NCBI GenBank assembly: GCA_963697585.1
Contig: CAVOOO010000009.1
Coordinates: forward strand, 28,656 to 92,655
DNA length: 64,000 nt
Direction of reading: 5' to 3'
Origin: an uncultured Chloroflexia bacterium
GTDB taxonomy: Bacteria; Chloroflexota; Dormibacteria; Aeolococcales; Aeolococcaceae
The position numbers and the translations under genes were made by a program. This document shows, piece by piece, positions 23,099 to 27,873 of this stretch; position 1 is the first letter of the stretch, and every line of letters begins with the position of its first letter. The notes beneath the pieces are model-generated. The model was not told where the DNA came from. It made no database searches and saw only the letters and a program-made list of their open reading frames with translations.

Positions 23099-23413
23099 GC
23101 GTCAAAGTCGGGCTGCGCACCTCACCTGCCCAGGGATCAGGCTTCCTCGGATCATGCCAACCTTCGCGCATGCCCCACTCGGTGTCCCGCGGCGCGGCCC
23201 GCCACCCCCTGGGCCGGCTCCATTCCGCGAGTGCGGGACTGAGGCCCCCACGGCGCGGCCGCCGCGATGTGGACGCCACGACCCACGCACCCGGGACCCC
23301 TCAACGTGCCACGTGATCGGGCCGCCCGTCGCCTGAACCCGAGTCCGCGAGCGCGCGTATGGAGAGGTGAGGCCCAGCCGACAGGGCGGCCCCGGCATTG
23401 GGGGATCTTCGAG

Positions 23414-23932
23414 GTGCAGCGGTGGCGGGTGGAACGTCGACACCGTGCCCTCGTCCTTGGCGCGGTCGCGGCTTCGGCGCTGGGCGCGGCATGTGGCGCT
23501 GCGACCGCCGGCCCCTCCGCCCTGGCGAGCCCTGCCACGGGCAACCTGATGACGGTTCAAACCTCGCAGACAGGTGCCGGAACCGTGCTGACAGGTCCCG
23601 GTGGCCGCACCCTCTACGTCCTCCTGGGCGACCAGGGAGAGGAGGTCCCCTGCTCCGGCGGCTGCCTGACCGTCTGGCCGCCGGTCACCGTCGACTCCAT
23701 GTCACCCCGGCCGGGCCCGGGTGTGAGCGCCTCGCTCTCGATCACGCCGTCGGCCGGGGGCGCGCTGCAGCTCACCGTGTCGGGCGATCCCGTTCACTAC
23801 TACGTGGGCGACACCTCGGCGGGCCTGGCCAACGGCGAGGGCATCAGCTCCTACGGAGGCACCTGGTACGCCCTGCAGCCGAGTGGGCGTCCCCTCACGC
23901 CGGGGATGGACGGCAACCCCTACGGCTACTGA
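23414..23932 (+). CDS. Secreted repeat lipoprotein (COG4315/Lipoprotein_15-like); start uncertain
   Basis: LGAAC lipobox, GRTLY, CSGGCLTVWPP, VHYYVGD...NGEG...GGTWY. Confidence 0.8.
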   Translation: MQRWRVERRHRALVLGAVAASALGAACGAATAGPSALASPATGNLMTVQTSQTGAGTVLTGPGGRTLYVLLGDQGEEVPCSGGCLTVWPPVTVDSMSPRPGPGVSASLSITPSAGGALQLTVSGDPVHYYVGDTSAGLANGEGISSYGGTWYALQPSGRPLTPGMDGNPYGY

Positions 23933-24052: not shown

Positions 24053-24541
24053 GTGGCGGGGCAGGCGGTCACCATATGGCTGGTGAGCCCCCCGCCCACC
24101 GACCGTCACCCCCGAGGACGGCCCGACCCCGGCATCCCTCCAGCCGGCCGGGCGCCGCGCGAGGTCGAGGTCCCGCTGGCGCGGTCCCGGGCCGCGGAAG
24201 ACGAGGGCATCCGGGCGCGGTTGGAGGAGAGGCGGCGCACCCTCGAGGAGGAGGTGCGCACCCTCAGTGAGCACGACCCGGCCGAGTCCGCCAACCTGCA
24301 GTTCGGCAAGCGGATCGGCGATGGCACCGCCTACGCGATCGACCGGATGACCGGCGCCTACCAGGCGCGAACCCTGTACCAGACGATCGTGCAGATCGAT
24401 GCGGCGCTCGACCGCCTCCGCGACGGCACGTATGGCACCTGCCAGGGGTGTGGGGCGGCGATACCCGCCGAGCGCCTGGAGGCGGTCCCGTGGGCTGCCC
24501 TCTGCGTCGGCTGCGCCTCGCGCCCGGCCCCGCGCCGGTAA
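24053..24541 (+). CDS. TraR/DksA C4-type zinc-finger protein; start may be GTG 24083
   Basis: Coiled coil then IDAALDRLRDGTYGTCQGCGAAIPAERLEAVPWAALCVGC. Confidence 0.85.
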   Translation: MAGQAVTIWLVSPPPTDRHPRGRPDPGIPPAGRAPREVEVPLARSRAAEDEGIRARLEERRRTLEEEVRTLSEHDPAESANLQFGKRIGDGTAYAIDRMTGAYQARTLYQTIVQIDAALDRLRDGTYGTCQGCGAAIPAERLEAVPWAALCVGCASRPAPRR

Positions 24542-24620: not shown

Positions 24621-25542
24621 TCAGGGCACGTCGGTGGCGGGGGCGCGCCACGAGGCCCCTGAGGTCCGGGCCTTGGTCGCCATGGCCGTCGCCCACCCCG
24701 CAACCGGCAGCGGCCGCCGCGGCATGGCCTGCACCCGGTCGATGAACGGCCGCACCTCGACGCTCCCGAACCGAGCCACCGGATGGCGGGAGGCGATCTC
24801 CACGGCCTCGTCCAGGTCCGCGCACTCGATGACGTCGTAGCCGGCGATGTGCTCCTTGGTCTCCGCGAACGGACCGTCGGTGACCAGCACCCGCCCCGCC
24901 TCTGCCCGCACCGTGGTGGCGGTGCTCACGGGCTGGAGCCGCCCGCCGTGGAGGTTGACGCCGCGACCGACCGTGTCCTCCAGCCAATCACCCATCCGCC
25001 GGTCTGAAGTCGGCGGCCTCCTCCGCGGTGAGCTCCACGGCCTCGCCGACGCAGATCAGCAGCATGTAGTTCTTCCCCCGCGTCGCCTCCGCCTCCGGTG
25101 TCGGGTCGGTGGGCACGGTCTGGTCTGGGCGCGGATCAGCGCCTTCCCGGCTCATCTTCGCTGCCCATTCGGCGACCTGCAGGGGTCGCCGCGGCAGCGC
25201 CTCGTCGCCGTCCACGAAGGGACGGATCTCGATGCTTCCGAACCGCACGGGGAGGCGAGAAGCCAGGTCGATGGCCTCGTCGAGGTCGGTGCACTCGATG
25301 ACGTCGTACCCGGCGATCTGCTCCTTGGTCTCCGCGAACGGGCCGTCGGTCACCAGCAGCTCTCCACCTCGGACCCGCACGGTCGCGGCGGAGCCGGGCG
25401 GCTCCAGGCGCCCCCCGTGGAGGCTGACGCCGCGCGAGATGGTGTCCTCGAGCCACAACCTCATCGTCCGCTCCTGCTCCGCGGTGTCCTCGGCGGCGAG
25501 ACCCTCGTCGCCGGCGGTGCAGTGAAGCAGCATGTACCTCAT
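24621..25542 (-). CDS. Tandem double YCII-related (DGPF) protein, apparent frameshift near 24997
   Basis: Two copies of VTDGPFAETKE(Q/H)IAGYDVIEC.DLDEA. The second domain N-terminus (KNYMLLICVG) is in the first frame and the rest (WLEDTVGRGV) is in another. Confidence 0.82.
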
Positions 25543-25630
25543 CTCAGGTTCCTCATTCTCATTGGGGCGATCAGAGCGTACCGTCGCCGGAGCGCACGGG
25601 CACGGGTCCGGCTGGTCTCATCAGGCGCGA

Positions 25631-25822
25631 CTACTGGGCGGCCCCGACCGCGGACGTCCGAGGCCGGGTCAGCAGGGACGCCGCGCGCCGGCCGGCGGCC
25701 GCCAGGCCTGCGGCGATGGCGGCGACGTCCGCAACCAACGCGCCGAGCTGGGCATCGTACTCGCGGCTGGCAGCCGCATTCCCCGCCGGAGCGAATCGGT
25801 ACGGCTGCTGGAACGAGTTCAT
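25631..25822 (-). CDS. Small hypothetical protein (63 aa)
   Basis: AGGAGAG RBS before ATG; lies just downstream of an ECF-type promoter motif. Confidence 0.55.
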   Translation of the reverse strand: MNSFQQPYRFAPAGNAAASREYDAQLGALVADVAAIAAGLAAAGRRAASLLTRPRTSAVGAAQ

Positions 25823-25880
25823 CGGGCTCTCCTCCGGGCTTCTCGCCCGTGTCATGCCCCTGAGGGGCTCTCACCCACCC

Positions 25881-25907
25881 GACGAACAGGGTGGCCGGAA
25901 ATGGACA
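25881..25907 (-). promoter_or_regulatory. Candidate ECF sigma promoter TGTCCA-N14-GTTCGTC
   Basis: Minus strand reads TGTCCAtttccggccaccctGTTCGTC; same boxes and spacing as the plus-strand copy. Confidence 0.65.
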
Positions 25908-25950
25908 TCCGGCTCCCCGTGCTCCGGTGATCCGCTCCGGCGAGTGCGAC

Positions 25951-25977
25951 TGTCCAGGGGGCGCCTGCCCGTTCGTC
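25951..25977 (+). promoter_or_regulatory. Candidate ECF sigma promoter TGTCCA-N14-GTTCGTC
   Basis: Plus strand reads TGTCCAgggggcgcctgcccGTTCGTC; points towards the small ORF and the sigma gene. Confidence 0.65.
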
Positions 25978-26045
25978 GCTCTGGTGACGGCCCCCTCGAG
26001 ACGCTGATCTCGAGGGTGGACGTAACGAGGAGTTGGAGAACGACG

Positions 26046-26309
26046 ATGAGCCCGTACATCCCCTACCTGCTGACTCTGAGATGGAGCCCTCCGGCCACCG
26101 CCGCGATCTGGGTGACGGAGGATCGCCCGGGGGCCCTCACCTCTCGGACGCCCTCGGTCCGCCGGGCGCCTGCGGCGCCCGCGAGGCTGATCCGACGGCT
26201 GGCCCACCGGCGGCCGGATGCGGCGATCGTCCGGCCCGTGGCGCCTGCCTCCTCCGGCCCCTGTCGGACGCACCCCGGCCAGAGCCTGACCGAGGCCCGG
26301 CCTCGCTGA
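26046..26309 (+). CDS. Small hypothetical protein (87 aa)
   Basis: AGGAG/GGAG RBS before ATG; lies downstream of the ECF-type motif. The C-terminal half is low complexity and uncertain. Confidence 0.4.
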   Translation: MSPYIPYLLTLRWSPPATAAIWVTEDRPGALTSRTPSVRRAPAAPARLIRRLAHRRPDAAIVRPVAPASSGPCRTHPGQSLTEARPR

Positions 26310-26497
26310 CCCAGTCCGAGCGTGACCATCGACCGGTCGCGGCCGCCTGGCCCATCTCTGAGATGGAGTCGCCATGGCGACAGCTCAACATCGAGAATGA
26401 ATTCACCTGGCGTGCCCGCGGCGATCGGGGTGACCGACGGGCCGTCCGCGCAGGGCCGACCACTCGAGGAGCCTGGGGATGACCGGACCGGTGACCG

Positions 26498-27778
26498 ATG
26501 CCGGATATCGCTGACCCGACCATCGAGGCCGCGGTCTCCGAGGCGTTCCACCAGGAGTGGGGCCGGGTGGTGGCGAGCCTCATCGCCAGCACCGGAGACT
26601 GGGACCTCGCTGAGGAGTGCGCTCAGGACGCCTTCGTACAGGCGCTGCGACGCTGGTCCCGGGACGGCGTGCCCACCCGCCCCGGGGCGTGGCTGACCAC
26701 CGTGGCCCGCAACCGCGCCGTGGACCGGCTGCGCCGTCGCGCCGTCGAGGCGACCAAGCTGGAGCAGACCGCCCTGGCCACTCCGCCCGGGGAGACGGGT
26801 GCCCCGCCCGGTGACGCGAGGATCCCCGATGAGCGGCTGCGGCTCATCTTCACCTGCTGCCACCCGGCGCTCGCCATGGAGGCGCGGGTGGCGCTCACGC
26901 TGCGATCGCTCGCGGGGCTGACCACCGCCGAGATCGCCAGCGCCTTCCTGGTCCCCGAGGCGACGATGGCAAAGCGCCTGGTCCGCGCCAAGCAGAAGAT
27001 CCGCGATGCCGGCATCCCTTTCCGGATCCCTCCACCCGACCTGCTCCCGCCCCGCCTCGGTGGGGTGCTGGCGGTGCTCTACCTCCTCTTCAACGAGGGG
27101 TACTCGGCGAGCTCCGGCAGCGACCTGATTCGGGTGGGGCTCAGCACCGAGGCGATCCGCCTGACCCGGGTCCTCGCCGAGCTGATACCGGAGGAGCCGG
27201 AGGTGAGCGGGCTCCTGGCGCTGATGCTGTTCACGGATGCGCGCCGCCACGCCCGTGTGGACCGGCGCGGTGAGCTGGTCACCCTGGAGGAGCAGGATCG
27301 CTCCCTCTGGGACGCGGACGAGATCGCGGAGGGGCGCCGGGTCCTCGACTCCGCCCCGGTCGGGCGGCCGGCGGGGCCCTACCAGCTGCAGGCGGCGATC
27401 GCCGCCTGTCATGCGCTGGCCGGGCAGGCCTCGTTGACCGACTGGGTGACCGTCGCCGACCTCTATGGGCGCCTCGCCGAGATCACGCCCTCACCGGTGA
27501 TCGAGCTCAACCGCGCGGTCGCGCTGGGCATGGCCGATGGACTTGAGGTCGGCCTGGCCCGGGTGGACCAGCTGGAGAGCTCGGGGGCCCTCGACGGCTA
27601 CTACCTGCTGCCGGCCACCAAGGCCGATCTGATGCGGCGCCTGGGTCGCCACGCCGAGGCCTCGGCCGGCTACAGGGCCGCGCTCGCGCTGGCCCCCACC
27701 GACGTCGAGCGCCGCTACCTCCTCCGGCGGATCGCGGAGATGGACCCTTCCACCCCCACCGAGAGGAACGTCCGATGA
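26498..27778 (+). CDS. ECF sigma-70 factor with long TPR-like C-terminal extension (ECF42-like)
   Basis: DLAEECAQDAF, WLTTVARNRAVD, DERLRLIFTCCHPAL, GPYQLQAAIAACH, SPVIELNRAVA; flanked by DGPF genes as is typical of ECF42. Confidence 0.9.
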   Translation: MPDIADPTIEAAVSEAFHQEWGRVVASLIASTGDWDLAEECAQDAFVQALRRWSRDGVPTRPGAWLTTVARNRAVDRLRRRAVEATKLEQTALATPPGETGAPPGDARIPDERLRLIFTCCHPALAMEARVALTLRSLAGLTTAEIASAFLVPEATMAKRLVRAKQKIRDAGIPFRIPPPDLLPPRLGGVLAVLYLLFNEGYSASSGSDLIRVGLSTEAIRLTRVLAELIPEEPEVSGLLALMLFTDARRHARVDRRGELVTLEEQDRSLWDADEIAEGRRVLDSAPVGRPAGPYQLQAAIAACHALAGQASLTDWVTVADLYGRLAEITPSPVIELNRAVALGMADGLEVGLARVDQLESSGALDGYYLLPATKADLMRRLGRHAEASAGYRAALALAPTDVERRYLLRRIAEMDPSTPTERNVR

Positions 27779-27873
27779 GGTACCTGCTCCTGATGTGCGC
27801 CGACGACAGCGTCGAGCTCACCCCTGCAGAGGACACCGCCGAGGCGGGGCGGCGCCACCCAGGCGGTTGGTAA
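27775..27873 (+). pseudogene. Truncated YCII/DGPF gene remnant (32 aa)
   Basis: ATGA overlap with the sigma stop; MRYLLLMCADDSVELTPAED resembles the YCII N-termini at 24.6-25.5 kb, then stops at TAA. Confidence 0.65.

Follow-up and report, generated by a model that had tools for sequence, protein, structure and literature searches.

The 64,000-nucleotide stretch of DNA analysed here (the window) belongs to the genome of an uncultured Chloroflexia bacterium, an organism known from metagenome assemblies only; the genome assembly is 3.2 Mb in 9 contigs, has 72% G+C and is estimated to be 88% complete. The subject is a divergent pair of putative promoters, with the two small open reading frames (ORFs) and the extracytoplasmic function (ECF) sigma factor gene that they appear to serve. 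From left to right, the locus contains a DksA/TraR-type zinc-finger gene, a double YCII/DGPF gene, a small ORF, a 223-bp intergenic region, a second small ORF, the sigma gene, the stump of another YCII gene and a short-chain dehydrogenase (SDR) gene. The genes read leftward from the intergenic region are called the minus arm below, and those read rightward the plus arm; positions are collected in Table 1.

The intergenic region contains the sequence TGTCCA-N14-GTTCGTC on both strands, at 25881-25907 (minus) and 25951-25977 (plus), with the -35 hexamers 43 bp apart. An earlier inspection of the letters alone (the sequence-only reading) had described these as identical back-to-back promoters of the ECF type, each followed by a ribosome-binding site and a small ORF, with the minus arm continuing into a double DGPF gene and the plus arm into an ECF42-like sigma. 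This description holds. The motif coordinates are exact; the ribosome-binding sites and start codons (GGAGGAG with ATG 25822, GGAGA with ATG 26046) are read directly from the sequence; and the flanking genes are identified by Pfam matches to YCII on one side and to Sigma70_r2, Sigma70_r4_2 and DUF6596 on the other. With one mismatch allowed, the window has two matches compared with 0.03 expected, and none of 100 shuffles reached two. The genome-wide scan that the sequence-only reading had proposed returned these two copies and no others, both for the exact motif and for a motif relaxed at two positions.

Table 1. Features of the divergent locus, by position in the window
Feature	Position	Strand	Remarks
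DksA/TraR-type zinc-finger gene	24053-24541	+	Flanks the locus
Double YCII/DGPF gene, second in the minus-arm operon	24621-25542	-	Pfam YCII matches on both halves
Minus-arm small ORF, 63 aa (MNSFQQPYRF...EYDAQLGAL...), first in the minus-arm operon	25631-25822	-	
Shine-Dalgarno sequence GGAGGAG, 6 nt ahead of ATG 25822	25829-25835	-	GAGGAGA kept in relatives
Minus-arm promoter, -10 element GTTCGTC	25881-25887	-	Start expected near 25872
Minus-arm promoter, -35 element TGTCCA	25902-25907	-	
Plus-arm promoter, -35 element TGTCCA	25951-25956	+	
Plus-arm promoter, -10 element GTTCGTC	25971-25977	+	Start expected near 25986
Shine-Dalgarno sequence GGAGA, 6 nt ahead of ATG 26046	26035-26039	+	Within invariant block AGTTGGAGA
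Plus-arm small ORF, 87 aa (MSPYIPYLLTLR...), first in the plus-arm (sigma) operon	26046-26309	+	
ECF42-type sigma, 426 aa	26498-27778	+	sigma2, sigma4, DUF6596, C-terminal TPR region; residue 159 is K
YCII/DGPF remnant; in relatives the full gene stands behind the sigma gene	27775-27873	+	

The promoter class can be judged against a consensus derived from 80 loci of the nearest sigma factors from other lineages (49-68% identity). At these loci the spacing between TGTCGA and CGTC peaks at N17, with 44 matches compared with 0-11 at the other spacings between N12 and N20, and TGTCCA...CGTC gives a smaller peak of 7 matches at the same spacing. The aligned sites yield the consensus TGTCGAT-N13-CCGTTCGTCGT. 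Of the 80 loci, 53 have one site or more, in most cases ahead of a DGPF gene and 400-600 bp upstream of the sigma gene. The two promoters in the window, which can also be written TGTCCA-N17-CGTC, have the consensus spacing and the extended -10 element GTTCGTCG, and the sole difference is at position 5 of the -35 box (G to C). Their location, upstream of the sigma operon and of the DGPF genes, is likewise that of ECF42-dependent promoters. For RpoE10, an ECF42 sigma of Sinorhizobium meliloti encoded behind a YCII gene, the mapped promoters have the form TGTCGG...TTCGTC and transcription begins about 9 nt beyond CGTC (Lang et al. 2018, PMC6180224); the starts expected in Table 1 are derived from this distance.

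The promoters are also the conserved part of the intergenic region. In a four-way alignment with three congeners, both -10 elements, both -35 elements and the Shine-Dalgarno sequence and start of the plus ORF are invariant, and the remainder has diverged. Among related loci, the plus-family ORF is preceded by the promoter in all 10 examined, 68-88 nt before the ATG, and the minus-family ORF in all four that have the ORF, 56-60 nt before the ATG. Back-to-back TGTCCA-type ECF42 promoters are also found in a distant metagenome-assembled genome (MAG) of Actinomycetota (L031:2366-2410), where the -35 boxes are 9 bp apart and, on one side, a DGPF gene and the sigma gene follow the promoter directly, without a small ORF.

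In each of four genomes of the genus, copies of TGTCCA-N15-TTCGTC occur only at ECF42 loci, which fits the description of ECF42 and ECF41 sigma factors as 'local regulators' (PMC7776599). A wider regulon was considered and rejected, the strict motif having no further copy in this genome or in the three congeners. In one relative (L098:6340-6366), an extra perfect TGTCCA-N14-GTTCGTC lies downstream of the sigma-YCII pair and about 400 nt upstream of a 234-aa ORF; this ORF, without a Pfam domain, may be a further member of the regulon there.

The sigma factor itself has the ECF core, with Sigma70_r2 at residues 30-82 and Sigma70_r4_2 at 117-168, no regions 1 and 3, and a TIGR02937 match above the cut-off. 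Its matches among Protein Data Bank (PDB) sequences are all ECF sigma factors and cover only residues ~4-172. The rest of the protein is a C-terminal extension (~175-426) with DUF6596 at 186-286 (E 3.8e-38) and the tetratricopeptide-repeat (TPR) families TPR_14 and TPR_2 at 375-409, the latter just under the Pfam cut-offs (22.8 versus 23.5 bits). The gene neighbourhood is that of the ECF42 group, with a double YCII gene in the divergent arm, a YCII remnant behind the sigma gene and intact copies in relatives. Sigma factors of the same architecture and with the same promoter, from Streptomyces, Kitasatospora, Amycolatopsis and others, are 60-68% identical to the window protein. By architecture, DGPF neighbours, identity and promoter form, the sigma is of the ECF42 type.

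The departure from the published -35 box is matched by a departure in the sigma factor. When 88 sigma factors, anchored on the window protein, were sorted by the -35 box of their own locus, the box form was found to track residue 159 (window ~26972-26974), which lies within the region-4 recognition helix TMA(K/Q)RLVRAK and is K in the window sigma. Q159 is present at every locus with a TGTCGA box (38 loci) and at one with TGTCGG, and K or R159 at all 16 loci with TGTCC(A/C), as 13 K-TGTCCA, one K-TGTCCC and two R-TGTCCC pairs. There are no discordant pairs: none of the K sigma factors has TGTCGA and none of the Q sigma factors has TGTCCA, the Q/K pairing spanning 52 loci with a strict site. 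In a quick maximum-likelihood tree, residue 159 changes state at least 4-6 times. The pairing of -35 position 5 with residue 159 is suggestive, and a specificity rule of one residue and one base (Q/K with G/C) is a candidate; such a pairing would be expected if every sigma reads its neighbouring promoter. The sequence-only reading had called TGTCCA a 'variant -35', which is correct in that the box is one position off the published form. It is not peculiar to this locus, since 7 of 50 ECF42 promoters at other loci have this box, and it goes with the replacement of Q by K in the sigma; because the box form follows the recognition helix, TGTCCA is better seen as half of a matched pair than as an oddity. 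Given the ECF42 boxes and spacing, and a -35 change matched to the sigma helix, both promoters are very probably genuine, with the adjacent sigma as their reader, and we infer sigma-dependent transcription from both.

The small ORFs had been put forward as two unannotated microproteins. The second word has fared better than the first, because GenBank and JGI records of relatives already list both as hypothetical proteins. The start of the minus ORF is best placed at 25822, giving 63 aa, as a 74-aa version from 25855 is not conserved; the plus ORF starts at 26046 rather than 26047 and has 87 aa, with a core of the first ~56-60 codons (26046-26225) and a tail of variable length. Among relatives the start codons, Shine-Dalgarno sequences and frames are kept, all indels are in frame, and both ORFs are matched in congeners by tblastn. 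The ratio of nonsynonymous to synonymous substitution rates (dN/dS, all pairs summed) is 0.57 for the plus ORF, compared with 0.70-1.29 in the other frames, and 0.45 for the minus ORF, compared with 1.15-1.75; there are no stops in seven and four species, respectively. The antisense frames that share the wobble position have dN/dS values of 0.70 (plus) and 0.47 (minus), but they carry 6 and 2 stops. G+C content at third codon positions (GC3) is 0.86-0.88, like that of neighbouring genes, but it is uninformative on strand, since the wobble positions are common to the antisense frame. Conserved starts and frames, the lowest dN/dS in their own frames and in-frame indels make translation of the small ORFs probable, with a moderate level of constraint.

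A search of 5.8 billion proteins recovered 11 clusters of the plus family and five of the minus family, none with a Pfam domain. The plus family has the pattern MSPYIPY(L/V)(L/M)T(L/I)R...TAEI(W/R)A.(E/D)DRLG.FA...PARLLGR over ~56 residues, and the minus family is 61-63 aa long with an invariant EYDAQLGA. The weak pattern that the sequence-only reading had noticed in both proteins turns out to reflect a relationship. A profile-profile comparison of the two families by hhalign gives P = 3.7e-4 over 44 columns, and the score of 25.2 compares with a mean of 9.4 (sd 1.9, maximum 16.8) in 200 column shuffles. The joint alignment is collinear from the first residue, and two distant members (P0030 and P0034) mix features of both families, with an MSPY-type N-terminus and DAQ(I/L)G. 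On these comparisons the two small proteins are paralogues. With the paralogy, the collinear alignment and the mixed-feature members taken together, the divergent unit looks like an old inverted duplication of a promoter and a small gene.

The family has a narrow range. An exhaustive search of 1.84 billion representative proteins with hidden Markov models (HMMs) returned 16 proteins at E <=1e-3, and no homologue was recovered there from outside the Dormibacteria-like lineage; the members come from MAGs labelled Candidatus Dormibacteria, Dormiibacterota or Chloroflexota. In most of the recovered contexts an ECF42 promoter precedes the small gene, and DGPF or sigma genes come after it. P0027, P0028 and P0030 are each first in an operon of the form small ORF, 0-2 YCII genes, ECF42 sigma and more YCII genes, and each is behind TGTCCA-N14-G(T/A)TCGT(C/T). 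One genome (G001) has two such small-ORF/ECF42 operons. P0034 has no sigma neighbour, yet TGTCCG-N14-GTTCGTCG is present ~150 nt upstream; P0032 and P0035 (E ~1e-4) are in unrelated contexts and may be chance matches. The expectation that the small ORFs are conserved beside other ECF42 genes was borne out at related loci and failed at greater distance, since no homologue is found by tblastn beside the 80 nearest ECF42 sigma genes of other phyla (best E 0.3). The family seems real enough to name, as a new, previously undescribed and lineage-restricted group of small proteins tied to one ECF42 branch.

Neither small protein has a match in Pfam at E up to 10, in NCBIfam or among PDB sequences, and neither has an anti-sigma domain, a His/Cys zinc-binding motif (HxxxCxxC) or a transmembrane segment. 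AlphaFold2 models the minus protein as one long helix (residues 12-52) with a mean predicted local distance difference test score (pLDDT) of 75 and central values above 90. An eyeball resemblance (YMLLI... / ...EY.AF) had raised the idea that the small ORFs are decayed N-terminal pieces of YCII/DGPF genes; this was rejected, as hhalign against 82 DGPF sequences gives P = 0.25 and 0.54 and there is no PF03795 match.

These results can be brought together in a model in which two divergent operons, controlled from the intergenic region between them, form an ECF42 regulon that is strictly local and activates itself; we put its probability at roughly 60%. RNA polymerase carrying the sigma encoded at 26498-27778 would recognise both TGTCCA-N17-CGTC promoters, the C at -35 position 5 being the form suited to the K-type sigma lineage. 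Leftward transcription would then express the 63-aa gene and the double DGPF gene, and rightward transcription the 87-aa gene and the sigma's own gene. The sequence-only reading had likewise inferred an autoregulatory switch, and the layout does fit an autoregulated divergent unit. The small products would act inside the sigma-DGPF module. Position is the only clue to their function, and it is for this reason that they are placed there as binding partners; the preferred guess is a short partner protein, helical or disordered, which would bind the DGPF proteins or the TPR extension of the sigma, in an amount that would follow sigma activity.

Several observations weigh against this model or parts of it. 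The S. meliloti sigma RpoE10 did not measurably activate its own operon (PMC6180224). The co-variation of K/Q with C/G offers only two independent contrasts in which both traits are known (L004 and L031 versus their Q neighbours), both of them concordant, so that a phylogenetically corrected test cannot reach significance. The dN/dS of 0.45-0.57 in the small ORFs amounts to moderate constraint compared with 0.25 for the sigma in the same genomes, the C-terminal tails vary in length (56-149 aa), and AlphaFold2 gives the plus protein no confident fold (pLDDT 54). Among 61 genomes of the same family and order, 33 have a DUF6596 sigma and only ~6 the small ORF, which argues that the small family belongs to one sub-lineage of ECF42 operons. 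One genome (G022) has a distant homologue (E 7e-8), and neither a DUF6596/ECF42 sigma nor an ECF42 motif was found in it. Finally, the congener L093 has no minus-arm ORF although both promoters are retained.

One alternative, which follows the suggestion of the sequence-only reading that the microproteins may modulate the sigma, is that this ECF42 sigma has its dedicated regulators in the small proteins. They would be either anti-sigma factors or co-activators that dock on the TPR extension, with feedback through the sigma's own promoters. The plus-family ORF heads the sigma operon at every locus that has it, ECF42 has no known anti-sigma, and reviews have proposed a partner protein that acts via the TPR region (PMC8999054, PMC6180224); the single long helix modelled for the minus protein would be the type of ligand that TPR domains bind. 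However, the proteins have no likeness to anti-sigma domains and no zinc-binding motif, and small ORFs lie ahead of DGPF genes as often as ahead of the sigma gene. The paralogue heads the DGPF operon rather than that of the sigma and is dispensable in L093, most ECF42 sigma factors of the sister genomes lack the family, and G022 has a homologue where no ECF42 sigma is found. We regard a dedicated regulator as unlikely, if the likeliest of the alternatives. The more particular version is doubtful: in it, a short protein, helical or disordered, made from the sigma's own promoters would set sigma activity, either by binding the TPR/DUF6596 extension or by linking that extension with the DGPF proteins, and the paralogues would give the promoter pair a feedback loop.

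The small ORFs might instead be regulatory upstream ORFs, the act of translation (through coupling, ribosome arrest or stabilisation of the mRNA) setting the expression of the DGPF and sigma genes. They are always first and directly behind the promoter, the N-terminus MSPYIPY and the Shine-Dalgarno sequence are kept even at the nucleotide level, and in one relative (L092) the ORF runs into the sigma start. The variable tail length, the weak constraint and the poor AlphaFold2 model of the plus protein are of the same tenor. On the other hand, 56-87 codons are long for leader peptides, and the whole ~56-residue core is kept at the protein level among members that are less than 50% identical. The distance to the next gene varies from ~50 to ~190 nt, the stop codon of the minus family is nearly fixed (61-63 aa), and there is neither a terminator-like site nor a conserved or covarying leader structure. 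On balance, a role for translation itself is rather improbable.

Two specific forms of leader control were rejected separately. An attenuation leader peptide is contradicted by the length of the ORFs, by the lack of a terminator-like site in 25400-26700, and by a consensus leader fold of -6.3 kcal/mol with no covarying pair. A riboswitch or other structured leader is contradicted by the lack of an Rfam match above noise, of a terminator and of covariation in nine aligned leaders. The predicted plus-arm leader does contain a 7-bp perfect hairpin at 25995-26014 (CTCGAGA-CGCTGA-TCTCGAG). Relatives have other GC-rich inverted repeats at this position, and the consensus fold is without covariation.

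That the small ORFs are not genes at all, and are frames left open by 72% G+C together with constraint on the 5' leader RNA or DNA, is very improbable: long spurious ORFs are abundant in high-GC genomes, GC3 is blind to strand, G+C content at second codon positions is high (0.62-0.72) and there is no family, fold or structure match, but the evidence from dN/dS, stops, kept starts and in-frame indels runs the other way, homologues outside the genus, with E values down to 1e-9 among the 1.84 billion representatives, occupy the same place in their operons, and no RNA structure is conserved.

The local ECF42 model can be compared with several known systems. ECF42 sigma factors with DGPF-gene targets have reportedly been described in Streptomyces venezuelae by Liu, Pinto and Mascher in 2018 (SVEN_0747, SVEN_4377 and SVEN_7131). 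The window locus shares with them the sigma2/sigma4 core with a long TPR-bearing extension, adjacent YCII/DGPF genes, a TGTC-type -35 and CGTC -10 at equal spacing, a small local regulon and the lack of a recognisable anti-sigma. It differs in the combination of TGTCCA with K in place of Q, in the divergent promoter pair, and in the small gene that comes after each promoter, ahead of the DGPF or sigma gene. In the literature searched, none of these three differences has been reported for the Streptomyces systems. The targets of RpoE10 are few, local and hypothetical proteins (PMC6180224), and the locus resembles that system in its YCII-sigma order, promoter form and small number of local targets. 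RpoE10 differs in having no divergent pair.

Other ECF systems are more distant parallels. As in RpoE-RseA and SigW-RsiW, an autoregulated operon would cause a small co-transcribed protein to be made in step with the sigma. However, the small gene here is upstream of the sigma gene rather than downstream, a second copy heads a different operon, and the small protein has no anti-sigma domain, transmembrane segment or zinc motif. ECF41 sigma factors such as SigJ of Mycobacterium tuberculosis also have a local regulon, with one or two promoters per genome, and a C-terminal extension that replaces the anti-sigma. In ECF41 this extension is SnoaL-like, whereas here it is of the DUF6596/TPR type, and the promoter and the targets also differ.

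The ECF42 group is among the most widespread of the ECF sigma groups, and to our knowledge a regulator of ECF42 has never been found. A conserved small gene that heads both predicted ECF42-driven operons is thus a concrete candidate, one whose effect on the sigma and on the DGPF proteins could be tested cheaply. The pairing of G/C with Q/K would be a simple specificity rule, and it could yield an orthogonal pair of ECF42 promoter and sigma. Should the small proteins prove to be passengers only, what is left is an ECF42 regulon of the ordinary, well-behaved kind. Overall, the locus appears to be a modest new twist on a known ECF42 circuit, in which a modulatory function of the small proteins is a hypothesis suggested by gene arrangement.

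The DGPF genes of this locus are in poor condition in the assembly. The double DGPF gene is broken at 25007-25008, where an extra base leaves one ORF at 24988-25542 and another at 24621-24995; the plus strand reads AA here, compared with a single A in three near-identical strains (L099-L101). These strains, like the congeners, have the gene as a single uninterrupted ORF of 293-306 aa. The frameshift could be either an assembly error or a strain-specific pseudogene. In relatives the sigma gene is followed by a complete YCII/DGPF gene of 115 aa. Here this gene is reduced to roughly its first 25 residues (MRYLLLMCADDSVELTPAEDTAEAGR), after which the SDR gene begins, which argues that a deletion removed the rest. 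With the frameshift and this deletion, all DGPF genes of the locus are damaged in this assembly. A further YCII remnant was looked for in the 188-nt gap ahead of the sigma gene, and none was found there.

To the left, the locus is also flanked by a Lipoprotein_15-repeat gene at 23267-23932, which, like the DksA/TraR-type gene, is syntenic in two of the near-identical strains (L099 and L100). A gene for a DksA-like, RNA-polymerase-binding protein beside a sigma locus may be meaningful or may be there by chance. Elsewhere in the genome, outside the window, a second ECF42-like operon (contig C8:110197-111782) consists of a YCII gene and then a DUF6596 sigma gene, without a small ORF; upstream of it are a -10 box GTTCGTCGG and a degenerate -35 box (CGTCCC). 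There is a second type of small-ORF operon, in which a truncated YCII gene directly follows the sigma gene and precedes a double YCII gene. The truncated product is 85 aa at two loci (L107:5695-5952 and L112:1522-1779) and 45 aa at a third (L109:6382-6519); YCII genes at these loci seem prone to truncation.

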